Assembly (NCBI GenBank): GCA_964467135.1
Contig: CAYXOZ010000005.1
Location: forward strand, 1 to 25,204
Length of the DNA: 25,204 nucleotides
Source: an uncultured Dehalococcoidaceae bacterium
Lineage (GTDB): Bacteria; Chloroflexota; Dehalococcoidia; Dehalococcoidales; RBG-16-60-22
Direction: 5' to 3'
Shown here: piece after piece, positions 193-24,096 of the stretch
Layout of the letters: each line of letters begins with the position of its first letter
Position numbering within the stretch: position 1 is the stretch's first letter
Program-made: the position numbers and the translations under genes
Notes under the pieces: model-generated
Databases searched by the model: none
The model's input: only the letters and a program-made list of their open reading frames with translations
What the model was told of the DNA's origin: nothing

Positions 193-203
193 AAAAATAA
201 TAT

Positions 204-2700: not shown

Positions 2701-2747
2701 TGTATACTGGGGGAGCTAAAGTATTACAATCAGGAAGGGTGAAGCCA

Positions 2748-3065: not shown

Positions 3066-3083
3066 ATTATCACACGGTTTCTT

Positions 3084-3623: not shown

Positions 3624-3659
3624 TCCAGTGCCCTCCTTGACCGATGTTAATACGGGAAC

Positions 3660-3665
3660 ATTATA
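3660..3665 (-). promoter_or_regulatory. Putative sigma70 -10 element (TATAAT) for the cupin gene
   Basis: Perfect TATAAT on the minus strand about 20 nt upstream of the AAGGAGG RBS; no convincing -35. Confidence 0.4.
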
Positions 3666-3690
3666 CTACAGGCTATCCCGGAGAATCACG

Positions 3691-4904: not shown

Positions 4905-7900
4905 ATGTCCAGGTTCGAAAAGTCAACCATGTCACTCATCTTCCGCTATCTCCGCATCCTGATTGCCGCCGTCTTTCTCATCGGCTTTTTGCCCGCGCCG
5001 GCGCTGGCCGAGGGCACGCCGCCGGCAAATATCACCGACCTCGCGGCCGGCAGCCCCACGCACAACAGTATCGCCCTCAACTGGACGGCCCCCACCGATG
5101 ACGGACTGGCCACCCAGTATGAAATCCGGTACGCGACCACCGTTATCGGCAACGAAAACGCCTGGAACAGCGCCCAACCGGCGCAGAACGTTCCGCCGCC
5201 GCATACCGCCGGCACTCCGGAGAGCTTCGTTGTACCCAACCTCAGCGCCAATACCACCTATTTCTTCGCCGTCAAGACCCGGGACGATGAGGACCTTCTT
5301 TCCGGCCTGTCCAACTCCCCCTCCGCGACCACTTTATTATCGCCGACTTTCAGCATCACTCACAGCCAGAACCGCTATTCATTCATGCTCGCGGCGGGAG
5401 CCAATATTACCGAGACCTTCAACGTAACGTCATTGAATAATTTCACTGGGACCATCAACCTGGGTTTCGGCGGACCGCCGGAAATAGCCAATAACTCCTC
5501 GGTCACGCCCAACCAGGTCACCCTGTCACCCGGTCAAACGCAGGCAGTCGCCCTGAACATACGCGCCGGCGCCATGGCGCCTTCAGGTTCTTACCAGTGC
5601 GGACTCAACGGCAATGCCCCGGGCCAGCAGAAAAGCGCCTTTTTCACGGTCATCATCGGCGTGCCCGGGCAGCCGCTTTTATCAGCATCGCCGCCGGTGG
5701 TCGGTCCCGGAGGCCAGAGCAATATCTTCGCCGCGCAGTTCCCCGGCGCCGCTGACATCACCCTCAAATGGGACTCCGGCCCGAACGCCGGGCAGACCAT
5801 CACTTCGGGACAGACAACCGCGGAAGGGACCTGGAATACTTTATTGAGTATTCCGCCTCAGGTGCCCGGGGGAATCTTTATCCTGAAAGCGATTTCCGGC
5901 CAAGCCTCCGCCACCTGCCAGATAACGATTACCTCTGGCGCCGGCCCCGATTACCTTCTTTCCGCCTCCCCCCAGTTCGTTTCCATCACGCCCGGCCACT
6001 CCGCCAACGTCACTATTTACGTCCAATCTATTAGCGGCTTCAACAGCACCGTAACGCTTAATGCGGGCACCGCCCCCGGTGTGACCAGGAGTTTCTCGCC
6101 CACTAGCGTCACGCCCGCCAGCGGTGACACAGCATCCGCTATCCTGACCATCTCTGTAGCGGACTGGGCTTCCCCCAGCATGTACCAGTTGAACATCGAA
6201 GGGACCTGCGCCAGCCCGCCCATAAATAAGTTTACCAATATCAACCTGGACATCCAGCCGCAGGCGAACTGGGGCCCGGGTATCTCGCTATCGCAGTCCT
6301 ACGCCCGGGCCGGCGACATGATTACCGTCTCCGGCGCCAATTTCCCGCCGGCTACCCAGGGACAGGTGGTAACGATAAAAGAGGTATTTTCCAACACCAC
6401 GCTGCCGACCAACCCCGCCAGTATCACCGTCAACGGCGGCAGCTTTACCGGGACTTTCACCATCCCGTCCGGGATACCTTCCGGCAACTACCGCATTAAA
6501 GCCATCGTTCAGAGCACCGGCGACTTCGCCGAGAGGGACTTCCAGATTCTGGGGACCAGCGAGACCTTCACCCTGGGGGTATCACCGCAGTCGATGAGCG
6601 TGATGACGGAGCAGGACCACAACACGGCCATCGTTTCGGTGAATATCTTTTCCGTGGGCGGCAGCAGCGCTACCGTCAACCTGGCGCTGGAAGGCGTGCC
6701 GGGCTGGCTCACGTACCGGTTCGGCGCCCTGGCGGACAATACCCCGGCTACTGACGCCAATGCTGTATCCGTGCCCGCTGGCGGGTCAACCTCCGTTGAC
6801 CTTCAGCTTACCGCCAGCTTAACAGCGCCGACCGGCTCCTATCCGGTCACGATCAAAGGCTGGATAACGGCCAGCCCGGAACAGCGCGTCTCGTTACAGC
6901 TCATGATACAGCCGCCGTCCGGATTCGGTATGGCGGAGTTCACCCTCAGTCCCACCTTCGGGGAGAGCGGCCGGACGGTCACTTTCTCTGGCTCCGGCTT
7001 CACCGACTGCACGCCGAATGAAGTCAGGGCTCTTAATTTCGGCGGCATCGATATACTCGCCACCCAGAGCCTCCCCACCATCACCGTGCCTGCCTCCGGG
7101 GAGTCCGCGGGCAGGTTCTCCGGCACTTTCCGCGTGCCGGCGGCGCTAGCGCCGGGCACGTATCCGGTAGACATCAGAGTGGGCGATTCGCCCAGTAAAT
7201 TCATCGGCAAATCCTTCACGATAACCGGAGGCAGCGATACCTTCGTGCTACAGGCATCGCCGAGCTTCCTCTTTGTGCCTCAGGGCGGCCATATCACCAC
7301 CATGATACAGGTACAGGCCACCGGCTCCACGTCACCCACGGTTGCCCTGTCGCTGGAGGGATACCCGGCCAACGATATCGGCAGTCTCCTCAATCCCAAC
7401 AGCGTTACCGCGCCGCCAGGCGGCGTTGCCACCTCCGAGCTGACTCTGACCGCGCAGCCCTGGTTGCCGGCGGGCCATTACACGATTACCGTTAAGGGTA
7501 TCAGCGGCGCCGAGGTGCACCGTATCCCGCTGGAAATGGACGTGGCGCCGCCGGCCGGCATGAATATGGCTTCGATTTATCTCAGCCCGACGTCCGGGTA
7601 CGCTAGCACCTGGGTCACCATCAGCGGCAGCGGTTTCCAGGCGAACTCGAGCGTTACCCACCTCTATCTCGGACCGCCGACTGTCGACAACGACTGGGCG
7701 GGGCGCCTGCCGCCTATTGTGACCAACGAATCGGGGGCGTTTACCGCCGTTTTACAGATTCCATCAGTTCTGCCATCCGGCATGTACATGATTGAAGCGG
7801 TGACGGGCAACCCGCCCAACGACCGGAGGGCATCCGCCCAGTTTACCGTCTTCGGCAACGGGGCAAGTTTTAGCTTTAACCTATCTCCTAATATGATACA

Positions 7901-10900
7901 GGCACCGCCCGGTGCAACAGTAACGACATCCGTTAACGTGCAGTCGGTGGGGGCGTCCTCGTCCAACGTGACCCTCCGCGTCGAAGGCCCCCCGATAATC
8001 GAATGGCGTTTTGACGGCGGGGAGTGGGGAGCGCCTAAAACCGTCTCCCCGCCCATCGGCGCTTCCCTGGTATCCTCGCTGGAAATCCGGCCCAAGCCGG
8101 TGGCTCCCATGGGGCACTACTCGCTCGCGGTCAAAGCCGCCGCTGGCCAGCAAACAGAGATGCGTAACCTCGAGCTGGACATTGGCGCTTCCGCCGGATT
8201 TGACATGCCGATATTCTCGCTTAATCCCAATTCAGGTACGGCGGGCACTAACGTGTCCTTCAGCGGCTCGAACTTCCCGCCGGAAGCTAATATCACGGGA
8301 CTAACCTTCGGTGGGGCTAACATCACCCTCGGGCAAACGATTACCACCTCGGCGCAGCGCGCCTTTTCTGGCTCCTTCACCGTTCCCGCTACGCTGGGCG
8401 GTCAAGCCATCTCCCCGGGAACGTATGGCGTCAGGGTATACGTAGGCCAGGTTCAGGCGGAGACGCAGTTCTACGTTTACGGCGCCGATGATACCTTTAT
8501 GCTATCCTTATCTCCCAGTTATTTACAGGGCAGTCCCGGCATCCAGGTGCGTACATCCGGCCTGCTTAAAGCTTTAGCCGGCGCCGCCCCGACCGTTAAG
8601 ATGACGGTCAAGGGTCTGCCGCCTGGCGTGGAAACCGCCTGGAACGAAATCGTTCAACCCGTCTTTACCCTCGCCACACCGCCGGGAGGACAGAACAACT
8701 TCCAGCTGGGGCTGGTATTGCCCAACATGATACCGATGGGCATGTACCCGGCCGTCCTCGAAGGCTGGGTGGATACTAATGCGAACAACGTCTGGGACGC
8801 TAACGAAAAAATCAGTCGCGTCAATCTTGAGCTTTCGATTATGCCGCCCCAGGGCTATAACATGGGCATGCTTTCGCTCAATCCCAGCTTCGGCAGGGTG
8901 GGCGATACCATCACCTTCAGCGGCTCCGGGTTCGCCCGGAACACCGCGATTACCAGTTTGACCTTCGCCGGTAATAACATACTCATGGCGGATATCACTA
9001 CCTCCGATGACGACTCCGGCTCGTTCTCCGGGGTCTTCACCGTGCCCACCATGGGACCCGGCCGTTATCCGGTCGACGTCGTGGTAGGCGACCGCCGGGG
9101 CGGCTTTGAGTTCCAGATAGTCTCCGGCGACCAGAAGTTCAGCGTCAACGCCTCGCCGGGCTGGCTGGCGCGGCCGGCGGGAAATACCGGCAACGTCAAT
9201 ATCCAGGTAAGGTCTCTCGTCGCCACTCCGCCCAGTCCCTCCGTGGTCCTGCGGATAGAAGGACTGCCGATGGGTGTCACGCCGAGCTTCACTACCGCCA
9301 ACGTGACCCCGCCCGTCGGCGCGATGGAAAGTCGTGACCTTCAACTGACGATATCGAGCGGCTGCCCGATGGGCAACTATCCGATATCCGTCCGCGCCTA
9401 TAACGCCGCCAATCCCTCCGAGGAAATCTGGACGAACTTTACCCTCGAGGTAACGCCCTCCGCCGGTTTCATGGATATGGGCATGGCGATGGTCACCATA
9501 TCGCCCACTTTCGGTTCTGCCGGCGACCAGATAACGGTCAGCGGCTACGGCTTCCCCAAGAGCCAGAGCCTGACCTCCATACGACTCGGCCCGCAGAACA
9601 TCACCCCCGGCGTGGCTACTACCACCGATGACACCGGCGCTTTTTCCGCGGTAATTACCGTGCCATCCCTGCCTTCCGGGATGCACCCGCTGGAAGTCAA
9701 CGTACAGAACACCATCAGGAATCTGCCTTTCAATATCATGGGAGCGAGCGACACGTTCTCGCTGGAAGTCAGCCCCAACTGGCTGCAGCCTATACCTGCC
9801 GGCGACCCCAACGGACGCCAGATTGCCATCAGCGTTAACGCGCTACCCGGCAAGACGACCGCCGTCACTCTGAGGACGGAAGGGCTCTTCGCGGCTTACG
9901 GCACCATCACCGAGGTCTGGAACCCGACCTCGAAGTCGGTCAGCATTACCGATACGGGCGGCGCCGCCACGGCTACTCTGATACTAATCGCCTCGGAAAA
10001 CCTGCCGCCCGGCCCCTACCCCTTTAATATCGTGGCTATCGACGGCAGCAATAACCGGCGCGATTTCCATATGGAGTTCATGGTAGGCCCGCCGGCCGGC
10101 TTCATGAACAACGACTGGATGCAGCAGCAGGGCGTCTTCTTCCCGGAGATATTCCTATCACCCAAGAGCGGGTCGGTCGGCACGCAGGTGACGTTCACCG
10201 GCACTAACCTGCCCGCGGGCGCCAGCATTACCGCTATTAACTTCGCCGGTAACACGGTGCCGCTCCCCGCCGGCGGCCTCACGGCGGATGACACCGGCAG
10301 CCTTTCCGGCTCGTTCATCGTCAGCGAGGCCTGGAACCTGCCCGCCGGCGGCATGTACTGGGTGGACTTCCGACTGCAAAAGGACACCTGGTGGCAGAAC
10401 ATCGGCAAGGACTTTAACCTGATGCGGGCGGACGCCGCCTTCAGCCTGGAAGCCACGCCCAACTTTATACCGCCGATACAACCGGGGGGCAACGGGCAGA
10501 CAAAAATCAACGTTAAAGCCCTCGGCTATAACAGCGCCAACGTCTCGCTGGCGGTCATGGAGAGCCTGAACGGGTGGGGTATCCCGGGCGGGGTGCAGTT
10601 ACACTGGAACGCCGTCGACGGACCCGCCACGACCATCGCTAACGTCCCGGGCGGCGGCCAGACGGCGAAAGACTTTTACCTGGTCGCTTCCAACCCCGGC
10701 CATTACATGATAAACATCGTGGGCTGGATTGACAGCAACGCCAACCAGCTCCTCGAAAAGAACATACCTTCGGAAGCGCAATCCGAGTTCGGCATACCTT
10801 TGAACTTCGACGTCGCGCCGCCCGAGGGATTCCAGAACTGGAACATGGACACGATGATGGACCAGATGGACATGTCCAGTGACGATAAATACCTCTTTTA

Positions 10901-13900
10901 TTTCCCGGAGATTGTCCTGAACCCCGGTATGGGGCAGGCGGACACTAAAGTGAATATCAATGCCTCTGACTTCCCCGCTAACGCCGTGGTAACAAGCCTC
11001 CGCTTCGCCGGAACTAATCTACCCGTTCCCGCCGGCACCGCCGCGGACAGCAACGGGGACTTTTCGCTTGTCTTTAACGTCCCCAAGACCATGTGGAGCG
11101 CCAATATCACCGCCGGCTGGTACGACGTCGAGTTGGCGGCCGCCAAAGCCGGCGAGCCGGAAGTGCGCATCAGGAAGCCCTTCCAGGTGACCGATGCCAA
11201 CGTCGCCTTCACCCTCTGGGCCGAGCCCAACTGGCTGCCGCCGATTCCTCCCGGCGGCAGCGGCTCGGCGCTCATCCGCGTGAAGTCAATGGGCGTGGCC
11301 GCCAACGTAACGCTCTCGATGGATAAAATCCCGCCGGGTGTCACCACTACCTTCTCCGACGCGACGCTTGAGCTTAGCCCGGGCGGCTCGGAGAGCGCGA
11401 CCCTTACCCTGTCCCCGACGAACATCCCGCCGGGGCATTACGGCGCGGAAATCCGGGGCGCCGCTACCATCGGCGGGACCCCCAAGACCTTCTATACGCA
11501 TATCGAGTTCGAGGTGCAGCCGTCCACGATGTTTAAAGACACCGACTGGATGCAGCAGCAGGGTATCTGGTTCCCGGAAATAACCCTTAACCCCACCGCG
11601 GGACCGGTCAAGACCAAGGTAACGGTAAAAGCCACCGACTTCCCCGCCGGCGCTAACATCACCAACCTGCGTTTCGCCGGCAGGGAGCTCCCCATACCGG
11701 TTGGCACCGCCGCCAATAACGACGGCGACGCCGACCTTATCTTCAACGTGCCCGACGGCTACGGGGTCGGCCAGTACATGGTCGAAGTGGTCGCCACATC
11801 CGGCGCGCAGCCGGTGTTCATCGCCAAGCCCTTCTTCATCGAGGATGCCAACGTCACCTTCAAGCTCAACGTCGTGCCGGGCTTCATCGCCGGCGTGACG
11901 CAGGGCAGCTCGGGCAATACGACCATCTTTATTGAGTCGACCGGCCAGGCCCTGACCGTGCAGCTATACGTGGACGGGCTGCCGCCGGGCGTTATCGGAC
12001 TGTTTGAAAGCCAGAGCGTCAACGTGCCGCCGGGCGGCTCGAGCAACACCCGGCTGACCATCACCACCCGCGCTTCGACCGGTCCGGGCATGTACCCCCT
12101 GACCATACGGGGCGTCAGCGGCAGCTCTACCAGGACAGTACCTTTCGGCTTCGGCGTCATGCCGCCGGCCAGCTTCAACATGCCCAAGTTCACCCTCGAC
12201 CCCGACTACGCCCCCGCCGGCTACGACAATAAACAGTACAAGATAGCCTTCTCCGGGACCGGGTTCCCGGCCAGCCAGAGCGTCAGCAGTATCACCTTCG
12301 GCGCGCAGTCGGTTGCTATTCCGGCTAACCTGGCTACCGACGCCAACGGCAATTTCAGCGGCGTCTTCCAGATGCCCATCGGTCTGACCCCCGGCACCTA
12401 CGACGTCCGCATCGCCGTCGCCGACGGCCACGGAGGTTTTATCTATGACGCGCGGCCGTTCTCCATCAGGGGCTCTCAATCTAAATTCATGCTCAAAGCA
12501 TCGCCGCCTTACCTGCCGCCGGTGCTCCAGGGCGGACAGGGCACGACCATGATCACCGCCCAGTCCGTGGGCACTGTCGCGGCTAACGTTACCCTCTCCG
12601 TCGATGGTTTAGCGCCGGGTATCACGGCTGTCTTTACGCCGGGCAGCACTGTGACCGTTACCCCCGGCACCTCCAGCAGCGCCACGCTGACTCTTAACGT
12701 CAGCGCCAGCACGCCGCCCGGTCCTTATCCCCTGAGCATACGCGGCATCAGCGGCAGTGAAATGATAGTGATACCGCTCGGCTTCAGCGTCATGTCCAAT
12801 ATCGGCGGCGGAGGCGGTTACGCCTCCATTACCATCAATCCGCCTCAGGCCAGGCCCGGCGAGCATATCGGCGTATCCGGCGCCGGCTTTACCAGCGGCG
12901 CCACTATCACCCTGACGGCGGCGCCACCCGGCGCGGCCACCCCGATTAACATCACACCCGGGACGATACAGGTACTGAGCGACGGCACCTGGGCCACGGA
13001 AATCACCGTGCCTCCGGCCGCGCAGGTACCGCCCGGCTCTTATATCATTAAAGCCAGCGACGGCACCCTTGCCGCCAGGTGCCCGTTCAACATCGTCCCG
13101 GCCACCGGCGCCGACTTCTTCCTTACCGTCTCGCCGCAGTCCATCCAGGTGGTCAGGGGCCAGAACGCTAACACCACCATCAAGTTGACCTCCAAGAACG
13201 GGTTCAACCAGGTTATCCAGTTCAGCGTTGGTTTCCTGGCTCCCGGCGTCACCGCTACTTTCCGGGACGCCGCCGGTAATATCATCGGCCAGTACCAGGG
13301 CTCCCCGGGCGGCGTTCGGCAGACCATCGCGCCGGTAGCCCTGACCCCGGTGCCCGGTGAAGAACTGGTGGTCATCACCAACATCGCCGTGGATATAGCG
13401 ACACCGTTAGGTCCTTACGATATTCCGCTCGAGGTCAAGACCAGCACTATCGCCCGGGCAGTGCCGTTAGGTCTCATGGTAGTTTCCACCGGCGCCAACT
13501 TGAACCTATCGCCTTCAAGCGGGCCGGCGGACACCAATATCAGTCTCTCCGGTTCGGGCTTTACCGCCGGTGAGACCATCACCGCAAAATTCGCCGGCAA
13601 TAATATCACCACGGTGCCCGGCACCGTCACAGCGGGGCAGGACGGCACCTTTACCGCCGTTATCAGCGCTCCGGCGATGAACCCCGGTATCTACGCGGTC
13701 AGAGTCACCGGAGGCACCAGCGGCATCGTTATCGATAGACCGTTTAGTCTACAGCCATCCGCGGTTGATTCTTTCATCCTCTATACCAATCCGATGAAAG
13801 TCGATATCCCCAGGGGCGGCTCCGGCACGGCTATCATCAAGATTGAGCCGCTGGGCGGCTTACAGTCCTCGGTCGTCCTCAGCGTCACCGGGCTCAACGC

Positions 13901-15920
13901 CGTCAGCGGCGCCACCTCCACCATCCTGCCGGCGTCAACGATAACACCGAGTATCGCCACGCCGACCACCGCCACGCTGACCATCAACGTCCCGGCGGGC
14001 GCCACGGCGGGGAGATACCCGCTGACCGTCACTGCCACCAATGGCGCCATCACCCAGACGCGGAGCATCACCCTTAATATAGTGCCCCCGGCTAATACGC
14101 CTGATTTCGCTATCAGCCTTGCCCCCAATACCATCCCTATCAATCCAAGTTCGAGCGCCAACACCACGGTAACGGTAACCGCCTTTAACGGCTTCAGCGG
14201 CACCGTCGCCCTGGCCGTGGCCATGGCCGATGCGAGCGCCTTGCCGGCCAGCATCACCTATACCGCGGGGTCGGTAACGGCTTCCGCCAACACCGGTCTG
14301 GGCAAACAGACGGTCGTCTTTAATGCGAACGCCAGCGCCCTGCCGGGCACCTGGACATTCAGGATAACCGGCACCAGCGGCGCCCTGACCCACAGCACGG
14401 ACGTCATGGTCATCTCGACACCCTCCGGGACAACGGTGACCACCTACGCCTCGCCGCTCCTCGACCCGAGCACCGTTACCTCGAGCACGCCGATTGATAT
14501 GACGGCCCCCTGGGGCGACGTCATCACCATCAACGGCATCATCAACGACGGCGGCGAAGCTGGTACCATTACCCCGTCTAACATCGATGTGCTGCCGGAT
14601 ACCCTGGCCGATCTTCCGGAAGGCGCCACCGACATGCTGGGCAGGGTAACCAATATCGATTCCAGCGTTCCCGTCGACGGGGTGGACTGGGACATCGGCT
14701 TCCCGTTTGACCCCGCCGACCTTGAGGCCGCCGGCCTCGCGGAAGAAAACCTGAAGGTAGCCTACCTCGACCCCGATACGGGGGAGTGGACGGAGGTGAC
14801 CACCACCGTCGATACCGACGCTAATATGGCCTACGCCTCGCCGGAGCACTTCAGCTCCTGGACGCTGCTCGCCACGACCAACCCGCCCCCGTCCCGGGTC
14901 GTTAATACCGGCGGTGGCGGCGGAGGCGGCGGCGCGACCGGCGTCACCTCGGTGTCTACCTCCGTCACCGGCAGCGGCAAGTTCGTCGTCGAGGTCACGG
15001 CGGAGTCAGCCGACGGCAAAGTGGAGATAACCATACCGAAAGACACTGTCGGCAAGAACAGCGTGGGCCAACGCTTGAGCTTCATCTCCATCAAACCGCA
15101 GGCCAATGCCCCCGCTCCTCCCGCCGATGCCAAAATCATCGGACTCGTTTACGATATCGGCCCCGGCGGCTCTACCTTCAACCCGGCCATATACGTCAAG
15201 TTCGACTATCAGGAATCGTCTCTACCCGCCGGTATAGTCGAGGAGGACCTGGTGATAGCCACCTTCCAGGACGGAAAATGGGTTAACCTTGCGGGCGGTG
15301 TCGTCGACAAGGCGAAAAATACGATTACCGCACCGGTGAACCATTTCTCGTCATTCACCGTCATGGCGCCGACGGCCGTAGCCCGTTTCAGCATCACCGG
15401 CCTTAAAGTAGCGCCGTCCGTGAGCTCTCCCAACGACCCTGTTACCGTCATCGCCACCGTTGCCAATACCGGTGAGCTCTCCGGCGACTACGAGGTCATC
15501 CTGACCATAAACGAGAGCGTGGCAGTTACGGAAAAAATCACGCTGGCCGCCCATACCAGCCAGGATGTCGATTTTACCATCGCCCCGAATAAAGTCGGGA
15601 CCTATGCCATCGATGTCAACGGCATGACCGCCACGCTGACCGTCAGGGAAGAAACAGCCGGCGCGGACGAGGTGCCGTCCGCCGGGGGTGAAACACCCGG
15701 AGAAATGGCGCCTGCCCCGGCTGAGGAGCCGTCCGCCGCAGAAACATTGCCTCCCGGAGTACAAGAGGAACCCCAGGCAACGACGGTGCCCGCTCTCTCG
15801 GAGCCGGAAACCGGTGAGTTCCCGATGTTCATGATATGGATTATCATCGGCATCATCGCCTTGAGTGCCGGTATCGGCATATCCGTCCGGCGGATACGCT
15901 CCAGCAGCAAGAATTCCTGA
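4905..15920 (+). CDS. Giant (3671 aa) secreted, C-terminally membrane-anchored multi-Ig-domain surface protein (putative adhesin)
   Basis: AGGAGGT RBS; signal peptide ending PALA|EG; N-terminal FN3-like domain; about 28 repeated beta-sandwich units; two HFS-ending domains; a CARDB-like domain; a Pro/Glu/Ala/Thr-rich stalk; a hydrophobic helix (about 15822-15887) followed by RRIR. Confidence 0.9.
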   Translation: MSRFEKSTMSLIFRYLRILIAAVFLIGFLPAPALAEGTPPANITDLAAGSPTHNSIALNWTAPTDDGLATQYEIRYATTVIGNENAWNSAQPAQNVPPPHTAGTPESFVVPNLSANTTYFFAVKTRDDEDLLSGLSNSPSATTLLSPTFSITHSQNRYSFMLAAGANITETFNVTSLNNFTGTINLGFGGPPEIANNSSVTPNQVTLSPGQTQAVALNIRAGAMAPSGSYQCGLNGNAPGQQKSAFFTVIIGVPGQPLLSASPPVVGPGGQSNIFAAQFPGAADITLKWDSGPNAGQTITSGQTTAEGTWNTLLSIPPQVPGGIFILKAISGQASATCQITITSGAGPDYLLSASPQFVSITPGHSANVTIYVQSISGFNSTVTLNAGTAPGVTRSFSPTSVTPASGDTASAILTISVADWASPSMYQLNIEGTCASPPINKFTNINLDIQPQANWGPGISLSQSYARAGDMITVSGANFPPATQGQVVTIKEVFSNTTLPTNPASITVNGGSFTGTFTIPSGIPSGNYRIKAIVQSTGDFAERDFQILGTSETFTLGVSPQSMSVMTEQDHNTAIVSVNIFSVGGSSATVNLALEGVPGWLTYRFGALADNTPATDANAVSVPAGGSTSVDLQLTASLTAPTGSYPVTIKGWITASPEQRVSLQLMIQPPSGFGMAEFTLSPTFGESGRTVTFSGSGFTDCTPNEVRALNFGGIDILATQSLPTITVPASGESAGRFSGTFRVPAALAPGTYPVDIRVGDSPSKFIGKSFTITGGSDTFVLQASPSFLFVPQGGHITTMIQVQATGSTSPTVALSLEGYPANDIGSLLNPNSVTAPPGGVATSELTLTAQPWLPAGHYTITVKGISGAEVHRIPLEMDVAPPAGMNMASIYLSPTSGYASTWVTISGSGFQANSSVTHLYLGPPTVDNDWAGRLPPIVTNESGAFTAVLQIPSVLPSGMYMIEAVTGNPPNDRRASAQFTVFGNGASFSFNLSPNMIQAPPGATVTTSVNVQSVGASSSNVTLRVEGPPIIEWRFDGGEWGAPKTVSPPIGASLVSSLEIRPKPVAPMGHYSLAVKAAAGQQTEMRNLELDIGASAGFDMPIFSLNPNSGTAGTNVSFSGSNFPPEANITGLTFGGANITLGQTITTSAQRAFSGSFTVPATLGGQAISPGTYGVRVYVGQVQAETQFYVYGADDTFMLSLSPSYLQGSPGIQVRTSGLLKALAGAAPTVKMTVKGLPPGVETAWNEIVQPVFTLATPPGGQNNFQLGLVLPNMIPMGMYPAVLEGWVDTNANNVWDANEKISRVNLELSIMPPQGYNMGMLSLNPSFGRVGDTITFSGSGFARNTAITSLTFAGNNILMADITTSDDDSGSFSGVFTVPTMGPGRYPVDVVVGDRRGGFEFQIVSGDQKFSVNASPGWLARPAGNTGNVNIQVRSLVATPPSPSVVLRIEGLPMGVTPSFTTANVTPPVGAMESRDLQLTISSGCPMGNYPISVRAYNAANPSEEIWTNFTLEVTPSAGFMDMGMAMVTISPTFGSAGDQITVSGYGFPKSQSLTSIRLGPQNITPGVATTTDDTGAFSAVITVPSLPSGMHPLEVNVQNTIRNLPFNIMGASDTFSLEVSPNWLQPIPAGDPNGRQIAISVNALPGKTTAVTLRTEGLFAAYGTITEVWNPTSKSVSITDTGGAATATLILIASENLPPGPYPFNIVAIDGSNNRRDFHMEFMVGPPAGFMNNDWMQQQGVFFPEIFLSPKSGSVGTQVTFTGTNLPAGASITAINFAGNTVPLPAGGLTADDTGSLSGSFIVSEAWNLPAGGMYWVDFRLQKDTWWQNIGKDFNLMRADAAFSLEATPNFIPPIQPGGNGQTKINVKALGYNSANVSLAVMESLNGWGIPGGVQLHWNAVDGPATTIANVPGGGQTAKDFYLVASNPGHYMINIVGWIDSNANQLLEKNIPSEAQSEFGIPLNFDVAPPEGFQNWNMDTMMDQMDMSSDDKYLFYFPEIVLNPGMGQADTKVNINASDFPANAVVTSLRFAGTNLPVPAGTAADSNGDFSLVFNVPKTMWSANITAGWYDVELAAAKAGEPEVRIRKPFQVTDANVAFTLWAEPNWLPPIPPGGSGSALIRVKSMGVAANVTLSMDKIPPGVTTTFSDATLELSPGGSESATLTLSPTNIPPGHYGAEIRGAATIGGTPKTFYTHIEFEVQPSTMFKDTDWMQQQGIWFPEITLNPTAGPVKTKVTVKATDFPAGANITNLRFAGRELPIPVGTAANNDGDADLIFNVPDGYGVGQYMVEVVATSGAQPVFIAKPFFIEDANVTFKLNVVPGFIAGVTQGSSGNTTIFIESTGQALTVQLYVDGLPPGVIGLFESQSVNVPPGGSSNTRLTITTRASTGPGMYPLTIRGVSGSSTRTVPFGFGVMPPASFNMPKFTLDPDYAPAGYDNKQYKIAFSGTGFPASQSVSSITFGAQSVAIPANLATDANGNFSGVFQMPIGLTPGTYDVRIAVADGHGGFIYDARPFSIRGSQSKFMLKASPPYLPPVLQGGQGTTMITAQSVGTVAANVTLSVDGLAPGITAVFTPGSTVTVTPGTSSSATLTLNVSASTPPGPYPLSIRGISGSEMIVIPLGFSVMSNIGGGGGYASITINPPQARPGEHIGVSGAGFTSGATITLTAAPPGAATPINITPGTIQVLSDGTWATEITVPPAAQVPPGSYIIKASDGTLAARCPFNIVPATGADFFLTVSPQSIQVVRGQNANTTIKLTSKNGFNQVIQFSVGFLAPGVTATFRDAAGNIIGQYQGSPGGVRQTIAPVALTPVPGEELVVITNIAVDIATPLGPYDIPLEVKTSTIARAVPLGLMVVSTGANLNLSPSSGPADTNISLSGSGFTAGETITAKFAGNNITTVPGTVTAGQDGTFTAVISAPAMNPGIYAVRVTGGTSGIVIDRPFSLQPSAVDSFILYTNPMKVDIPRGGSGTAIIKIEPLGGLQSSVVLSVTGLNAVSGATSTILPASTITPSIATPTTATLTINVPAGATAGRYPLTVTATNGAITQTRSITLNIVPPANTPDFAISLAPNTIPINPSSSANTTVTVTAFNGFSGTVALAVAMADASALPASITYTAGSVTASANTGLGKQTVVFNANASALPGTWTFRITGTSGALTHSTDVMVISTPSGTTVTTYASPLLDPSTVTSSTPIDMTAPWGDVITINGIINDGGEAGTITPSNIDVLPDTLADLPEGATDMLGRVTNIDSSVPVDGVDWDIGFPFDPADLEAAGLAEENLKVAYLDPDTGEWTEVTTTVDTDANMAYASPEHFSSWTLLATTNPPPSRVVNTGGGGGGGGATGVTSVSTSVTGSGKFVVEVTAESADGKVEITIPKDTVGKNSVGQRLSFISIKPQANAPAPPADAKIIGLVYDIGPGGSTFNPAIYVKFDYQESSLPAGIVEEDLVIATFQDGKWVNLAGGVVDKAKNTITAPVNHFSSFTVMAPTAVARFSITGLKVAPSVSSPNDPVTVIATVANTGELSGDYEVILTINESVAVTEKITLAAHTSQDVDFTIAPNKVGTYAIDVNGMTATLTVREETAGADEVPSAGGETPGEMAPAPAEEPSAAETLPPGVQEEPQATTVPALSEPETGEFPMFMIWIIIGIIALSAGIGISVRRIRSSSKNS
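5346..14420 (+). repeat. Intragenic protein-level tandem array: (A-B)x13 followed by A-A
   Basis: A units read F.L..sP.....G......v.s......V.L.v.GlPpGv...L.l.......G.Yp..v.g. B units read i.LsP..G..G..vt.sGsgF......l.F.G......td..G.Fsg.f.vP....G.Y.v.v. Counted by eye; boundaries approximate. Confidence 0.75.
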
Positions 15921-16580: not shown

Positions 16581-16967
16581 ATGCCAAAAGACATGGCCCA
16601 TAAAATACGTCGATTCCTCAGGAAAATCGACCGTAATGGCAAGGGTTTTACCCTGGTGGAACTGCTTATCGTCGTGGCTATCCTGGGCGTCCTGGCGGCG
16701 GTCGTCCTGCCTAACGTCACCGGTCTCGCCGGCGAAGGGCAGGAGGAAGCCGCCAAGGCCGAGCTGGTGACCGTGCAGACAGCCATGGACACGATGATGG
16801 CGAAAAGCCACATCACCTCGGTCACCGCCACCACCACCACTGACGATATGTCGGCTTTTCCGACAGGACGGCCGTTATATCCGGATTACCTGAGGACTGA
16901 CACCACCAAGGGCACTTATTCCTGTACCATCACCGGTCTGGTTACCCAGGTATCTAAAGGCTATTAG
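16581..16967 (+). CDS. Type IV pilin (PilA-like prepilin)
   Basis: GGAGGT RBS; basic 22-aa leader; class III cleavage site KG|FTLVELLIVVAILGVLAAVVLP with Glu at +5. Confidence 0.92.
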   Translation: MPKDMAHKIRRFLRKIDRNGKGFTLVELLIVVAILGVLAAVVLPNVTGLAGEGQEEAAKAELVTVQTAMDTMMAKSHITSVTATTTTDDMSAFPTGRPLYPDYLRTDTTKGTYSCTITGLVTQVSKGY

Positions 16968-17057
16968 TCGCCAGGATCAGCCGCCCGGATTGTACCCTTC
17001 CTTCGCGGGCGTAATTAACCGCGTTATCCCTGACGCGCAGGTATCAGGAGAAGAGAT

Positions 17058-19883
17058 ATGACCATCGGAGTAACCCGTTTTCGGCGGTGGGGATATAATA
17101 TCCCCCGGACTGCTTCAGCCATTGTGCGTTTCATATTCGAGCCCTCATCCGGTGTGGATCCGATGCAGCGGCGACGTGTCCGCATGCTCTCGATTTTCCT
17201 GCTGATAATGACCGTCAACACGATAGTAAGCATGCTGGTCCTGAAAAATGTCGGCGGCGACCCGTGGATAGTCCTGCAGGGTACCTCTCTGGCCCTTTTC
17301 CTGGGTTATCTGGTCAGCCGCACCAGGTACTACCAGGCGGCGCTGGTGGTGGCTATCACCATACCCGCCCTCCCTCCGCTGGCTATCGCCCTTTTCAAAC
17401 CTCCCGAAGTGAACCTTTCGGTGGAACTGATGTGGCTGGCCCTGCCGTTGATGGTCGCCGCCCTGATGCTGACGGCGAGAGGAACCATCATCGTCGCTAT
17501 CGGTTATGCGTCCTTTACCGCGGCGCTCAAGGTGTTCGGCTTGATGGAAATGAAAGACCTGGCGCCTGTGATAGGCTACCTCATTATCGTTACCTTTTTC
17601 GTGATTGTCATCTCCATCATCCGTAAAAGAGACCGGGTGGAAATAGAGAACCAGGTTATTGAGTTGCAGCGCGTCGAGAAGCTGCTGAGTGAGAACAACG
17701 AACAATTGGACACGATACTGAATTCCATCCCCTGTGGCATCATCGTTGTTGACGAAGAAGCACACGTTATCCAGGACGTCAACAACTACGCGAGCCGCAT
17801 CATCGGTCTGCGCCCGGAGGAGATTATCGGGAAAGAGTGTCACCGGTTCATCTGCCCCACCCAGCGGGGGAAATGCCCCATCACCGACCTGGGCTCGCAA
17901 ACCGATAACTCGGAGCGGGTACTCATTGATACCAGCGGTAAGTCCATACCCATCCTGAAAAATATTGTGCGGGTGACGATGGGCGGGCGGCGGTACCTGC
18001 TGGAGACTTTTGTTGACATCACCGAACGCAAGCGTATCGAAGCGGCGCTGAGAGAATCGGAGGAGCAGTTCTCCAAAGCCTTTCACGCCAGCCCCGACTC
18101 TATCTCGATTTCCCGATTAAGCGACGGCGTCTTTATCGAAGTAAACGAGAGTTATACCCGCACCTTCGGCTATACCCGCGAAGAGCTGGTCGGTCACAAT
18201 GCCGACGATTTGAATCTGTGGGCCAATCCGGAACAGCGGGAAAGCATGCTCCGGAAGATACGCGAACGTGTCATCATGAATAATGAAGAAATCCAGACAC
18301 GTACCAAAGCGGGTGAAATCCGCACCCAGCTGATATCCAGCGAATACGTCTCTATCGGGGGTGAACCCTGCCTTCTCGTGGTCAGCACCGACATTTCCGA
18401 GCGCAAGAGTATGGAAGAGTCCCTGGCCAACGAAGCTATACGCCGCCGTATCCTGATCGAGCAGTCGCGCGACGGCATCGTTATCCTCGACCAGGACGGC
18501 ACGGTCTTCGAAGCCAATCGCCGGTTCGCGGAAATGCTGGGTTATTCTTCGGAAGAAATCCTCAAGCTCAATGTCTGGGACTGGGAATTCCTTTATCCGC
18601 CGGAACAGGTAAAGGAAATGTTAAGGACCGTCGGCGAGGCCGGCGACCATTTTAAGACGACTCACCGGCGCAAAGACGGCACGACCCTCGATGTTGAAAT
18701 AAGCACCAACGGAGCGATGTTCTCGGGACAAAAGCTTATTTTTTGCGTCTGCCGGGACATATCCGAGCGCAACCGCATGGAGAAAGCCCTGAGGGAGTCT
18801 GAGGAAAAATTCTCCAAAGCTTTTTACAATATCCCGGAGGCTATCTCCATTTCCAGGTTGAGCGACGGAACCTTCGTAGAGGTGAACGATACCTACACGC
18901 GCGTCACCGGCTACACGCGAGATAAAGCAATAGGTCGCTCTTCGGAGGAGTTAAAACTCTGGGTAAACGCTGACCAGCGTAACGAGGTGATACGCCGGAT
19001 ACAGGCAGGGGGACGTGTCGAGAATGAAGAGTTCCAGCTCGTGGTGAAATCGGGGGAAAAACGGACCATACTGCTATCCGCCGATATCATCAACATCAAC
19101 GGCGAACCCTGCCTGTTAATTATCGGCAACGACATCAGCGAACGTAAGCGCGCCGAAGAAAAACTGAAAGAAGCGCTGGCTAACCTGGAACGCTCCAGCG
19201 GCCAGCTCGCGGCGACGAACAAAGAGCTGGAGGCCTTCAGCTATTCCGTGTCTCATGACCTCAGGTCGCCGTTAAGGAGCATCGACGGTTTCAGCCAGGC
19301 GCTCATCGAAGATTATAAAGACACACTCGATGAAAAAGGCCAGGACTACCTCCAGCGCCTCCGCAGCGCCAGCCAGAAAATGGGCGAGCTCATCGACGGC
19401 ATATTGAAACTCTCGCGCCTTACCCGGAGCGAAATACACCATGAGCCGATTGACCTGAGCGCGCTGGCCCGGGAGATTGCCGGCAGGCTCCAGGAAGCGC
19501 AACCGGAACGCCGGGCGGAATTCGTCATCCATAACGATTTGACCGCCACCGGAGACCCCCAGTTGATGAGAGTGCTGCTGGAAAACCTGCTGGGTAATGC
19601 CTGGAAATTTACCGGTAAAAAGCCGACCGCGAAGATAGAATTCGGGGTAGAAAACCAGAACGGCCGGCAGTCCTATTTCATTAGAGACAATGGCGCCGGG
19701 TTCGACATGACCTATGTGGATAAGCTTTTTGGCGCTTTCCAGCGCCTCCATGAGGTGACGGAGTTCCCCGGTACGGGTATCGGCCTGGCCACGGTGAAGC
19801 GGATTATCCACCGCCACGGCGGTACTATCTGGGCCGAGGGACAACCGGGGGAAGGCGCTACGTTTCACTTCACCATTAATTAA
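17058..19883 (+). CDS. Membrane-bound PAS (x4) sensor histidine kinase
   Basis: N-terminal multi-TM region; four PAS/PAC units; H-box FSYSVSHDLRSPLRSIDGF; HATPase boxes NLLGNAWKF, DNGAGFD and GTGIGLA; AGGAG RBS. Confidence 0.92.
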   Translation: MTIGVTRFRRWGYNIPRTASAIVRFIFEPSSGVDPMQRRRVRMLSIFLLIMTVNTIVSMLVLKNVGGDPWIVLQGTSLALFLGYLVSRTRYYQAALVVAITIPALPPLAIALFKPPEVNLSVELMWLALPLMVAALMLTARGTIIVAIGYASFTAALKVFGLMEMKDLAPVIGYLIIVTFFVIVISIIRKRDRVEIENQVIELQRVEKLLSENNEQLDTILNSIPCGIIVVDEEAHVIQDVNNYASRIIGLRPEEIIGKECHRFICPTQRGKCPITDLGSQTDNSERVLIDTSGKSIPILKNIVRVTMGGRRYLLETFVDITERKRIEAALRESEEQFSKAFHASPDSISISRLSDGVFIEVNESYTRTFGYTREELVGHNADDLNLWANPEQRESMLRKIRERVIMNNEEIQTRTKAGEIRTQLISSEYVSIGGEPCLLVVSTDISERKSMEESLANEAIRRRILIEQSRDGIVILDQDGTVFEANRRFAEMLGYSSEEILKLNVWDWEFLYPPEQVKEMLRTVGEAGDHFKTTHRRKDGTTLDVEISTNGAMFSGQKLIFCVCRDISERNRMEKALRESEEKFSKAFYNIPEAISISRLSDGTFVEVNDTYTRVTGYTRDKAIGRSSEELKLWVNADQRNEVIRRIQAGGRVENEEFQLVVKSGEKRTILLSADIININGEPCLLIIGNDISERKRAEEKLKEALANLERSSGQLAATNKELEAFSYSVSHDLRSPLRSIDGFSQALIEDYKDTLDEKGQDYLQRLRSASQKMGELIDGILKLSRLTRSEIHHEPIDLSALAREIAGRLQEAQPERRAEFVIHNDLTATGDPQLMRVLLENLLGNAWKFTGKKPTAKIEFGVENQNGRQSYFIRDNGAGFDMTYVDKLFGAFQRLHEVTEFPGTGIGLATVKRIIHRHGGTIWAEGQPGEGATFHFTIN

Positions 19884-19895
19884 AGGAGCACGACG

Positions 19896-20345
19896 ATGAT
19901 AGGAAGAGACGAAGTAATTCTGCTGGTGGAAGATAACCCGGATGACGTTGAGCTTACCATGAGGGCGTTCCAGAAAAATAACATCGCCAACGAGGTAGTC
20001 GTGGCCCGCGACGGGGTGGAAGCCCTGGACTATCTCTTCTGCCAGGGAGCTCACGTAAACCGGGATATCACTAAAACCCCGAGGCTTGTGCTCCTCGACT
20101 TAAAATTGCCGAAACTCGACGGCCTCCAGGTGCTGGAGCGCCTCCGCGCCGATGACCGCACCAAGCTCGTTCCCGTCGTTATCCTGACATCTTCGAGGGA
20201 GGAACAGGACCTCATCAGCGGCTACCGCTCCGGGGCAAACAGCTATGTGCGTAAACCGGTGGACTTTAATCAGTTTCTCAACGCCGTCCGCCAGATAGGA
20301 CTCTACTGGCTATTGATAAATGAATCGCCGGCTCAGCAATACTAA
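19896..20345 (+). CDS. Single-domain response regulator (Rcp1-like)
   Basis: ILLVEDNPDD, LLDLKLPKLDG, ILTSS and NSYVRKPVDF...YWL; no output domain; AGGAG RBS. Confidence 0.92.
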   Translation: MIGRDEVILLVEDNPDDVELTMRAFQKNNIANEVVVARDGVEALDYLFCQGAHVNRDITKTPRLVLLDLKLPKLDGLQVLERLRADDRTKLVPVVILTSSREEQDLISGYRSGANSYVRKPVDFNQFLNAVRQIGLYWLLINESPAQQY

Positions 20346-20393
20346 GGATGAAAAATACTCGCCTGCCTTCAATACTAGCTCATGGGCTGAATA

Positions 20394-23300
20394 ATGGAAA
20401 ACGGGAATATTAAAGTTTTACTGATTGAAGACAACCCCGATGATACCGAGCTGCTCCTGAGAAAGCTGGGGAAGTCGGTGAACGGCCAGCTGGCAGTTAC
20501 CACCGTGAAAACCCTGCACGACGCGCTGGAATATATCAGGGAGAACAAACCGGATATCATCTTAAGCGACCTCGGACTGCCGGACAGTCACGGCCTCGAT
20601 ACCGTCACCAAAATAATGTGCGAAGAGCCGCAGATACCCCTGGTAGTGCTCAGCGGGTTCGATGATGAGGCTACCGCCATTAAAGCCGTACAGTCCGGCG
20701 CGCAGGACTACCTGGTAAAGGGGCAGCTGGAGGGCCGGCAGATAGAACGCGTCCTCTTCTACGCCATCGAGCGGGCCCGGTTACAATCGGAGCTGGAGCA
20801 ACATACCCAGGAAATAACCAAAATCCAGTCCAATCTATTGAAAATCCTGGGGAAAAACGCTGATGCCATCATCGTCGTCGGCGAGAAGGGGCGGATACTG
20901 TTTGCCAATCCGGCCGCCGAGTCCCTTCTGGACCAGAAGAAAAAAGACCTGATTAACGAATCATTTAGTTTCCCGCTGAACAAAGGCAAAAAGTCGGAAA
21001 TAATCATCAAGCATCGCGGCAGGAATGATACTGTCGCCGAGATGAACGTAGTTGAAATCAACTGGGAAGGCAAGCCCGCCTATCTGGCATCCCTGCGTGA
21101 TATCACCGAGCGCAAGCAGATGGAAGAGGCCGTGAGAGAATCGGAAGCCAAATTCTCCAAGGCGTTCCATTCCAGCGCCAACCTGTTCGCCATCAATAAG
21201 CTCGAAGACGGTAATTTCATCGAAGTGAATGAAAGCTTCACCCGAATAACGGGCTATTCCCGTAAAGAGGCTATCGGCCATAATGCCACCGACCTCAATC
21301 TCTGGGCTGACGAAGAAGAGCAGGCCAGAATCGTTAAAAAGACCAGAGAAAACGAGATACTGCGTAACGAACAAATCAAAATCCGCCACAAGTCAGGCGA
21401 GATACGCAACGGGCTTTTTTCCAGCGAGCAGATTACCGTCGGCGGTGAACCCTGCTTTATTCACACTATTACCGATATCACCGAGCTCAAGCGGGCTGAG
21501 GAACAGCTGCGCGTATCGGAAGACAAGTTTTCCAAAGCTTTCCGCCACAGCCCGGAAGGGATAGTCATCTCCCGCGTAGAGGACGGCACGATACTGGAAG
21601 CCAACGATACCTTTTTACGACTCACCGGCTATACCCATGAAGAAGTCATCGGGAAGAAATCCATCGAGCTGGGACTCTGGGCAAATCCGGAAGAACGCGG
21701 GGAAATACTTAAAATACTAAAAGACGAAGGGACGGTGAACAACCGGGAATGCCAGTTCCGCATGAGGTCCGGCGAAATCCGCACCTGGCTTTTTTCCGCT
21801 GAGATCATCAATATCAACAACAATCCCTACATGCTTTCCGTGACCACCGATATTACCGAGCGTAAAAAGGTCGAGGAAAAGCTGCGCTATTCGGATACCG
21901 CCCTGAACTCCATCCATGAAGGCGTCTTCGCCACGGATAATCAATTTATCATTTCCCGGTGGAACGAGATTTGCGAACAGATGTTTGGCACTAAAGCCTC
22001 CGAGGCTATCGGGAAACTCGTGGGCGATGTCATTGTGATGGTCGAAGACTACCCGAAGCAAAACGAAAAGCGCTTCGCCCTCCTCATGACCAAAGGGTTC
22101 AACCAGGAGGAGCAGATTTACCGGACCCCAAAGGGTAATATCTGGGTCGACGTGCACGCCCAGGCGATAGAGGAAAACGGCAAGCGCTTCGGCTGGGTAA
22201 CCCTGGTAACGGACATTACCCCCCGCAAGAGGGCGGAAGAGGAACTGCGCTTCTCCCACGCCGCCTTCCGGTCCATCCATGAAAGTGTCATCGCCACGGA
22301 CACGAAATACGTCATCACCCACTGGAACGATATCAGCGAACAGATGTACGGGACTAAAGCCGCCGAGGCCATCGGCAAGAAGCTGATGGACGTTATCGAG
22401 ATTGAGGAAAATTTGCCTGGTGAAAACGAGCGGCGGTTACAAAGACTGGAGTCCGACGGCTACTACCGTGAAGAGCAGCTGCACCGCACCAGATACGGTG
22501 AGGTATGGGTCGATGTCAGCGTGCAGGCGATAGAAGAAAACGGGAAACGTTACGGCTGGATAGTGTTAGCCTCGGCGATATCCCAGCGTAAACTGGCTGA
22601 GGAGGCGCTCAAACGGAGCGAGGAAAAATACCGGGAGCTTATCAACACCTCCACCGACGGTATCGTCTCCACCGATGCCGGGATGAGGGTCATCATCTGG
22701 AACCAGGGAGCGGAAAAAATATTCGGGTATAAAGAAAAGGAAATGCTGGGGCAATCCTTATTGAAAATTATCCCGGAGAGGGAGCATACAAGAACGAAAA
22801 AAGAGCAACACAGTATAAAAAATACCATAACGGAGAAAACAAACCGCATCATCGAGGGTATCGGCCTGAGAAAGGATGGGAAAGAGATACCGATTGAGCT
22901 TTCGCTATCGGCCAGAGAAAATGAGGGCACTTTCATCGCTACCGCCATCATCAGAGATGTCACCGAACGCAAAGAAGCCGAGGAAAAGCTGCGGAAAATC
23001 GACCAGATGAAACAAGAGTTCCTCTCCAATATCTCTCACGAGCTGCGCACACCGCTCCAGTCCATCGGCGGCTTTACCAAGTTGATACTAACCGGCCAGG
23101 TCCCCGACCCCACCGTCCAGCAGGAGTTCCTGCAAATTATCGACCGCGAGACTTCACACATCGGCAATCTCATCAATAACCTGCTGGACATGTCCCGGCT
23201 GGAATCCGGCCGTTTCCAGGTGAATAAGAGGCTCATACCGTTACGGCAGACCATCATCGATTCCGTCAAAACTTTTTACAGCATCGCCCGGGACAAAAAC

Positions 23301-23768: not shown

Positions 23769-24096
23769 AGGCTATGAAGTTATTACCGCCGCCAACGGAC
23801 TGGAAGGCATCAGAAAAGCCCGCCTTGAAGCCCCCGACGTGGTCATTCTGGATGTCATGCTGCCGGGCATGGACGGCTTCGAAATCTGTCACCGCCTGCG
23901 GTCCGAGCCGGACACGGCCCAACTGCGGATATTGATGTTTTCCGCCAAAGCCCAGGAGATAGATAAAAATACCGGGCTGAAAGTGGGGGCGGATGACTAT
24001 TTACCCAAACCGGCCGCCCCGGCGGAAATCGTGAGTCGGGTGGAAAAGCTGCTGGCAAAGAAGAAAAGCCACCGTGCCGCCGAGGAGAAGGTGTGA
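23695..24096 (+). CDS. Single-domain response regulator
   Basis: AGGAGG RBS; ILVIEDD, ILDVMLPGMDG, FSAK and DYLPKP; 133 aa with no output domain. Confidence 0.92.
   Translation: MTKKILVIEDDPAISRLVDYSLRHEGYEVITAANGLEGIRKARLEAPDVVILDVMLPGMDGFEICHRLRSEPDTAQLRILMFSAKAQEIDKNTGLKVGADDYLPKPAAPAEIVSRVEKLLAKKKSHRAAEEKV

Follow-up and report, generated by a model that had tools for sequence, protein, structure and literature searches.

Two tandem HFS-motif domains, probably of a self-cleaving ZU5/GPS type, in a giant surface protein of an uncultured Dehalococcoidia bacterium

The stretch of DNA discussed here comprises 25,204 nucleotides (the window) from an uncultured Dehalococcoidaceae bacterium of the phylum Chloroflexota (NCBI GenBank assembly GCA_964467135.1, contig CAYXOZ010000005.1, positions 1 to 25,204 of the forward strand). 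An open reading frame (ORF) of 3671 amino acids at 4905-15920 on the plus strand encodes a giant surface protein of this wetland Dehalococcoidia-like bacterium. Towards the C-terminus, the protein harbours two domains in tandem, each of which ends with the motif HFS. Judged by sequence, both domains are members of a large prokaryotic family, with about 150 amino acids each. They probably belong to the prokaryotic ZU5/GPS superfamily, and more specifically to the type recently named MAIN, and would cleave themselves between Phe and Ser (HF/S; the slash marks the predicted scissile bond throughout). Self-cleavage of at least one of the two HFS sites is considered likely on the basis of homology; for cleavage at both, the chances are put at only a little better than even.

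The motif and the homology of the domains can be stated plainly. In the translation of 4905-15917, the HFS triplet is present only at residues 3315-3317 (site 1, SPEHFSSWTLLA; the codons here read gag cac ttc agc tcc tgg) and at residues 3480-3482 (site 2, PVNHFSSFTVMA). The protein contains 22 histidines in total, and its composition predicts about 0.09 HFS triplets; two such triplets at matching positions of homologous domains rule out a chance origin. The two domains share 18 of 49 residues in a BLASTP comparison (E=2e-6), a family profile made without domain 1 recovers domain 1 at residues 3263-3329 (E=1.1e-16), and hhalign relates 14 domain-1-type to 14 domain-2-type orthologues over 99 columns, with a probability of 96% and E=3.8e-9. 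The string HFSSWTL is invariant in all 14 domain-1-type orthologues. An earlier, sequence-only reading had proposed two HFS motifs with the coordinates listed below, each closing a similar domain, and a Gly8 hinge between the domains; translation of the ORF and the above comparisons bear this out, including the position of the glycine run. Its statement that the sites lie just above the membrane anchor was loose. Ser3482 is 159 residues away from the predicted transmembrane (TM) helix at 3641-3661, and a CARDB-like domain and a linker of about 69 residues lie in between. The elements concerned are as follows.

14454..14894, plus strand: domain 1, divergent ZU5/MAIN-like, residues ~3184-3330, ending EHF/SSWTLLA; the securely homologous core is 3263-3329
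14847..14855, plus strand: HFS site 1, His3315-Phe3316-Ser3317; predicted scissile bond Phe3316/Ser3317
14910..14933, plus strand: Gly8 run between the two domains, residues 3336-3343
14934..15389, plus strand: domain 2, a canonical family member, residues 3344-3495, ending NHF/SSFTVMA
15342..15350, plus strand: HFS site 2, His3480-Phe3481-Ser3482; predicted scissile bond Phe3481/Ser3482

The family to which these domains belong is widespread. A search of 1.84 billion proteins with domain 2 yields 4050 cluster representatives at E ≤ 1e-3 and 1736 at E ≤ 1e-10; the closest named relatives are 'CARDB domain-containing proteins' from metagenome-assembled genomes (MAGs) of Chloroflexota/Dehalococcoidales. 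A search for related loci with a single domain leads to two loci, both in MAGs of uncultured Dehalococcoidaceae. The bacterium's own genome (1.73 Mb, 82% complete) contains seven copies of the domain, with the motifs HFS (two copies), HFT (three), HLT and HLS; most of these copies lie between a Gly run on their N-terminal side and CARDB, a Pro/Thr linker and a TM helix on their C-terminal side. Across a phylum sample, 29 of 401 genomes have a match, concentrated in the order and class of the window's organism. Pairs of the domain in tandem number 39 among 190 family proteins, with a Gly run in the linker of 22.

Conservation of the motif was counted in the best 150 of the 4050 representatives together with 38 further hits. 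The 162 aligned copies have His in 156 cases, Phe or Leu in 160, and Thr, Ser or Cys in 159 (110, 47 and 2, respectively). When 232 copies from 190 proteins are scored, His is accompanied by Ser, Thr or Cys in 217; a Ser, Thr or Cys is found without His in seven, neither is found in three, His alone in one, and six copies are gapped. Only nine of the 226 scorable copies depart from H-[F/L]-[S/T/C], which the other 217 retain. Thirty domain tails from the phylum sample, a set outside which the partial matches L032, L034 and L035 fall, comprise 24 with H-[F/L]-[S/T], five that are degenerate and one that is truncated. With its variation confined to Ser, Thr and Cys, the third position looks like that of a nucleophile and not of a packing residue.

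Some copies have lost the motif, namely L009, L027, L029 and L030 in the phylum sample and P0184, P0187, P0205 and P0206 elsewhere, with RFG or KLG, for example, in its place. Copies without His often are without Ser/Thr too (RFG in P0184, P0187 and P0205). By analogy with uncleaved GAIN and ZU5 domains, these motif-less copies look like non-cleaving versions. S-F-S replaces H-F-S in L022:1480-1947 and in the third copy of P0173 (1306-1442). CARD8 and NLRP1 cleave at this variant motif, SF/S.

Kinship with ZU5 emerges from the relatives of the two domains. In alignment A1, which has 26 members (L009, L011, L021, L027, L029 and L030 were left out as degenerate, near-duplicate or truncated), seven members match the Pfam model for ZU5 (PF00791) at E ≤ 10, the best with E=8.4e-6. 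Scores are 26.4 bits for L025 and 24.7 bits for L002, a paralogue from the same genome that is 57% identical to domain 2, at a cut-off of 21 bits. The SLH-anchored protein P0173 has ZU5 in its precomputed Pfam annotation. Among solved structures in the PDB, the A1 profile finds its best match in the ZU5 domain of ZO-1 (2kxs/2kxr, E=0.0019-0.0024, profile positions 10-92); ankyrin-1 ZU5 follows with E=0.2. The motif occupies positions 137-139 of the 153 in the profile, after the part that matches ZU5. ZO-1 ZU5 differs from the family in lacking both the Ser and a strand after it, and it is not known to self-cleave. Its chain in the PDB entries (2kxr_A/2kxs_A) ends in ...DHF opposite the family's ...HF; this sub-alignment alone is not significant. 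ZO-1 ZU5 looks like a ZU5 domain that stops where the family would cut. The missing strand of ZO-1 ZU5 is probably supplied by a partner peptide.

A second profile (A2), covering the last 63 residues, has as its best PDB matches the adhesion G-protein-coupled receptors (GPCRs) ADGRF1 (E=0.03-0.045) and ADGRB2 (E=0.08). The alignment places the conserved Trp and H-F-S-x-F opposite the GPS cleavage motif W...H-L-T/S-x-F, in exact register. The window's protein resembles the GAIN/GPS region of adhesion GPCRs (ADGRF1, ADGRB2, latrophilin) in that W...H-(L/F)-(T/S)-x-F...(L/M) closes a juxtamembrane β domain, and in the order ectodomain, domain, membrane. It differs in having neither GPS cysteines nor GAIN-A nor seven TM helices; as no more than one TM helix and 10 tail residues follow, a tethered-agonist signal is unlikely. 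Taken together, the relatives that score above the PF00791 cut-off, the match to ZO-1 and the GPS alignments support the ZU5/GAIN kinship proposed by the sequence-only reading. Its suggestion of cis-autoproteolysis at HF/S, with non-covalent retention and release, is likewise supported by homology; the narrow variation of the motif and the cleavage described below for MAIN domains and PIDD point in this direction.

ZU5, GPS and Nup98 have been united as the ZU5 superfamily, with the prediction that its autopeptidases take care of the processing of large surface proteins in bacteria (Zhang, de Souza, Anantharaman, Iyer, Aravind 2012, PMC3482391). The domains described here would fall into the same superfamily and would carry out the same predicted processing. 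Placements akin to those of the TcdB/TcaC-type polymorphic-toxin autopeptidases described in that article also occur in the present family: in P0179 the domain (79-228) directly precedes SpvB (239-292), and in P0185 and P0186 it is N-terminal (46-191 of ~1300 amino acids). The toxins typically carry the domain ahead of their RHS repeats, on the N-terminal side, whereas in the window's protein it is C-terminal, doubled and membrane-proximal.

A close parallel in bacteria is the Microbial Autoproteolysis INducing (MAIN) domain, a GAIN-like domain described in a recent preprint (Brogan & Rudner, bioRxiv May 2026, 10.64898/2026.05.12.724683), the only source that a literature search aimed at MAIN, GAIN-like and prokaryotic ZU5 domains turned up. 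In the preprint, Edman sequencing places the cut in YfkN of Bacillus subtilis at the Phe-Ser bond of HFS; cleavage is abolished by S1346A and regained with S-to-T, and the resulting pieces purify together. Proteins of this kind are usually built from a signal peptide, adhesion or enzymatic domains, MAIN and a surface anchor, the anchors being mostly of sortase or SLH type, and force-dependent release is proposed. The family, gathered by PSI-BLAST from YfkN, is said there to comprise ~15,000 MAIN proteins, of which the Streptococcus agalactiae IgA-Fc receptor is another example. The window's protein resembles these in several respects. Both sites have H-x-(S/T) with a hydrophobic x, and HFS exactly as in YfkN. 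The domains stand close to the C-terminus of a large secreted protein of adhesion type, before a cell-surface anchor, with the same proposed retention and release, and the succession of leader, FN3/TIG/Ig-like repeats, two domains and anchor is the MAIN architecture. Furthermore, among the proteins found with the family profile are SLH-anchored enzymes from Bacillota like those treated in the preprint. The differences are that the window's protein has two domains in tandem, that its anchor is a C-terminal TM helix reached via a CARDB-like domain and a linker and not a sortase, SLH or cell-wall-binding anchor, and that its host belongs to the Chloroflexota. The words 'tandem' and 'Chloroflex' have no occurrences in the main text of the preprint; its supplementary tables could list such forms.

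Database-wide, copies of the domain are found in further settings, including the SLH-anchored proteins P0173 and P0182, the dockerin protein P0188, and P0179, where it adjoins SpvB. Relatives of P0182 and P0201 are SLH proteins of Paenibacillus, Cohnella and Clostridium with lyases, glycosidases and phosphoesterases. The Chloroflexota-derived profile finds all 16 P0182 relatives (P0192-P0207) with E values, scaled to 1.8e9 sequences, from 1e-18 to 0.03; in these proteins the domain lies ~180 amino acids before the C-terminus, and the motif is HFT in 12 of the 16, typically HFTKFAVFA. No protein named YfkN is found among the 17 matches of one search from a Bacillota-type copy or among 120 of the 140 matches of a second.

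The tandem arrangement is reminiscent of PIDD, in which both ZU5 domains are directly followed by a self-cleavage site, HF/S (Ser446 and Ser588); the cleavage-site Phe of PIDD is described as a buried structural anchor (D'Osualdo et al. 2011, PMC3210808). PIDD1 and the window's protein share two serial ZU5-type domains, each ending in HF/S directly after the ZU5 core, which would also here give rise to three fragments. PIDD differs in being cytosolic, eukaryotic and engaged in signalling, with UPA and death domains; the window's protein is extracellular and prokaryotic, has no UPA or death domain, and neither of its two domains matches the ZU5 model directly.

By homology, the following mechanism can be proposed, in which fold, cleavage, fragment retention and release are all predictions. 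Each domain would fold as a ZU5/GAIN-B-like β-sandwich, and the cut would sit in the turn before the last β-strand. The conserved His would activate the Ser that follows a buried Phe, and an N-to-O acyl shift with subsequent hydrolysis would sever the bond between Phe and Ser. Cuts at Phe3316/Ser3317 and Phe3481/Ser3482 would leave three chains, namely the rod (36-3316, 338.8 kDa), a middle piece (3317-3481, 16.8 kDa) and a membrane stub (3482-3671, 19.6 kDa). The expected products have the neo-N-termini SSWTLLATTNPPPSR and SSFTVMAPTAVAR (as semi-tryptic peptides) and the neo-C-terminus ...NTITAPVNHF. The pieces would stay attached to each other because the N-terminal strand of each (SSWTLLA, SSFTVMA) would stay in the sandwich of the preceding piece. 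The rod would then hang on two serial non-covalent joints, and tension on it could open one of these, so that the ectodomain is shed. As the cytoplasmic tail is only 10 residues long, shedding is likelier than signalling for the giant protein.

A number of points weigh against this picture. The window's domains 1 and 2 themselves match no Pfam family even at E ≤ 10; ZU5 is matched by their relatives only, which makes the ZU5 link a transitive one. In the Bacillus subtilis control genome, the ZU5 model finds no match. The opening ~45 residues of domain 1 show no detectable likeness to domain 2. The GPS alignments, with E=0.03-0.08, are marginal, and the location assigned to HFS, a turn that joins the final two strands, is itself predicted. 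Residues 3184-3495 contain no cysteine, whereas the aligned GPCRs have C-x-C before the His; moreover, no helical GAIN-A subdomain precedes either domain, as domain 2 starts right after Gly8 and domain 1 right after Ig-like repeats. The domains are therefore not GAIN domains in the strict sense, and the giant protein does not match Pfam GAIN or GPS at E ≤ 1. The counts that show the motif in 217 of 226 scorable copies were drawn from the best-scoring relatives and hence overstate conservation across the family. Identity with the MAIN domain of the preprint is indirect, being based on motif, architecture and Bacillota SLH relatives. Many eukaryotic ZU5 domains, including those of ankyrin, UNC5 and ZO-1, are not known to self-cleave, and not every GAIN domain that possesses the motif is known to do so.

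Nup98 (Pfam Nucleoporin2) gives no match with the giant protein at E ≤ 1 or with the 26 A1 members at E ≤ 10; HFS is all that is shared with the Nup98 autoproteolytic domain. The C-terminal end of the NCBIfam model TIGR04213 (PGF-pre-PGF) aligns with the C-terminal 46 residues of domain 2 (domain residues 99-144 of 152; 15228-15365) at 15.5-16.8 bits (E=0.013 and 0.005), below its cut-off of 28, and the model is matched by only 4 of the 26 A1 members at E ≤ 1. The archaeal PGF-pre-PGF domain, which precedes PGF-CTERM anchors, may share the superfamily. Apart from this sub-threshold match, no Pfam or NCBIfam family covers the two domains in the giant protein, and a PDB search with its C-terminal 500 amino acids gave only Gly-linker artefacts (E ≥ 0.34).

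Non-cleaving spacers are one alternative. Both domains could be ZU5-like modules that merely lift the rod off the membrane, with a structural role for HFS; a buried Phe and hydrogen bonds of His and Ser in the turn would then explain why the motif is retained. In favour of this view, self-cleavage is not known for the ankyrin and ZO-1 ZU5 domains that give the best PDB matches, and the motif-less copies (L009, L027, L029, L030, P0184, P0187 and P0206) presumably still fold. However, a structural site should tolerate Ala, Gly or Asn at the third position, which is Ser, Thr or Cys in 159 of 162 copies, and His and Ser/Thr are kept jointly in nearly all scorable copies. In addition, nearly all of the homologous Bacillota-type domains tested in the preprint cleave (10.64898/2026.05.12.724683). 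Pure spacers are regarded as unlikely. Somewhat less probable again is a single break point, with domain 2 alone active and domain 1 diverged. This is a sub-case of the preferred explanation, self-cleavage at HF/S, and its share is counted within the probability of the latter. The family profile matches domain 1 over its C-terminal ~100 residues only, and domain 1 does not have the Phe that is nearly invariant at position 82 of alignment A1; these observations fit a diverged domain 1, but the invariance of HFSSWTL in its 14 orthologues argues for selection on the motif itself.

It is also conceivable, with a very low probability, that HFS and the Gly run form a site for a separate protease or transpeptidase of sortase-, rhombosortase- or archaeosortase-like type. 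The domain described by TIGR04213 precedes an archaeosortase signal, so its weak similarity (E=0.005-0.013, below cut-off) would agree with such a role, as would the recurrence of Gly runs upstream of the domain. Yet the motif is predicted to be part of a folded domain and, with 159-330 residues in between, is not adjacent to the TM helix, and inspection of the C-terminus of the giant protein reveals no sortase-type signal. The same motif occurs in SLH, dockerin, TM and N-terminal placements, and is thus independent of any one sorting system.

Self-cleaving surface domains as such are already known; they were predicted in 2012 (PMC3482391) and demonstrated in the 2026 preprint. Less ordinary are the PIDD-like tandem, the direct TM anchor in Chloroflexota, and a conserved class of paralogues with a helix-turn-helix (HTH) fusion. 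The present case would extend microbial GAIN/ZU5-like domains to the Chloroflexota/Dehalococcoidia of wetlands and freshwater sediments, and in topology its direct single-TM anchor comes nearest to that of adhesion GPCRs. It would also add a tandem arrangement like that of PIDD. Should both joints prove real, the 339-kDa rod would be a natural test case for how serial β-strand joints set the force needed for shedding. There is also a benefit for annotation, as the relatives seen here are labelled only 'CARDB domain-containing' or hypothetical. As the 1.7-Mb genome carries seven copies, sheddable anchoring may well be a major theme on the surface of this organism.

The leader of the giant protein is followed by FN3 and by many TIG, NPCBM_assoc and Ig-like repeats, and then by domain 1, a Pro-rich stretch with Gly8, and domain 2; a CARDB-like domain, an acidic, Pro-containing linker, the C-terminal TM helix and a basic tail complete the protein. 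A similar TM tail is present in 126 of 190 family proteins, as judged by a crude pattern.

4905..15920, plus strand: ORF of the giant surface protein, 3671 amino acids; Pfam: fn3, TIG (six stretches), NPCBM_assoc, MG2 and others
4905..5009, plus strand: predicted signal peptide, residues 1-35, ...PAPALA/EG; a hydrophobic leader, identified by eye from the sequence
15402..15617, plus strand: CARDB-like Ig-fold domain, residues 3500-3571; Pfam 20.9-21.3 bits against a cut-off of 22.7, with relatives annotated as CARDB
15618..15824, plus strand: acidic, Pro-rich linker, residues 3572-3640 (69 residues)
15825..15917, plus strand: C-terminal TM helix (3641-3661) and basic tail RRIRSSSKNS

Glycine runs upstream of the domain are a recurrent feature, and runs of at least five within 30 amino acids of it are found in 85 of 201 family domains. 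Those directly upstream range from 5 to 15 residues, with 8 in the giant protein and lengths of 8 (L004), 11 and 15 among the own-genome paralogues L003, L004 and L005. The GGC-rich Gly8 stretch attracts many unrelated pieces in wetland contigs. Candidate roles of the runs are a hinge, or variation in length by slippage.

One of the paralogues in the same genome (L004:202-2433, 744 amino acids, at about 25085-27316 of contig C2) has a different topology. Its N-terminus contains two XRE-type HTH domains (HTH_31, 110.9 bits; HTH_3, 98.7 bits), followed by a TM helix, an ectodomain, Gly8, an HFT domain, a CARDB-like region, a Pro/Thr linker and a second TM helix. HTH and the family domain are combined in 11 of the 207 proteins in hand, and at least eight of these 11 have a C-terminal hydrophobic tail. 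With a domain of self-cleaving type placed between its two membrane anchors, such a DNA-binding protein could serve in signalling. A broader reading, which is doubtful and is put forward only tentatively as a whole, combines three elements. The succession of Gly run, ZU5/MAIN-like domain, CARDB, Pro-rich linker and TM helix might be the breakable anchor in general use among Dehalococcoidia surface proteins; the doubled domain might act as a mechanical fuse that has two stages and a free adaptor piece of 16.8 kDa; and separation of the joint in the HTH paralogues, whose XRE-HTH regulator would be cytoplasmic, might be read inside the cell, following a logic similar to that of Notch or RsgI. If the last of these were true, microbial GAIN-like domains would gain a signalling role, which according to the preprint has so far not been found for them.

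The neighbourhood of the giant gene offers no obvious partner of the HFS domains, either among the upstream dsr genes or in the downstream pilin and kinase set. Upstream (204-3065) are genes for DsrM-like (Nitrate_red_gam) and DsrK-like (Fer4/CCG) proteins and dsrC. Downstream (16581-25202) are a prepilin (N_methyl), two multi-PAS histidine kinases, receiver domains and a PilB-like T2SSE ATPase, the gene for which runs off the end of the window. Minus-strand ORFs at 13935-14849, 14831-15139 and 15351-15764 match nothing in Pfam and are treated as frame shadows. Promoter and terminator scans at the ends of the giant gene gave nothing that exceeds shuffled sequence.

Parts of the window also occur in contigs of metagenomes from wetlands and freshwater sediments (eight runs of five studies, with a word share of at least 0.24). 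No RNA run is listed among the sequencing runs with such parts. Two of the four wetland/sediment runs compared yielded near-identical pieces. Among 40 of 108 strain differences, none falls at 14847-14855 or 15342-15350; cover of site 2 is thin, and this result is not used as evidence. A related strain in run X7 has a 3-base GCC insertion behind 15748, in the linker, and in a contig of run X3 a 72-base block within domain 2 (15185-15258) is replaced by diverged sequence of equal length.

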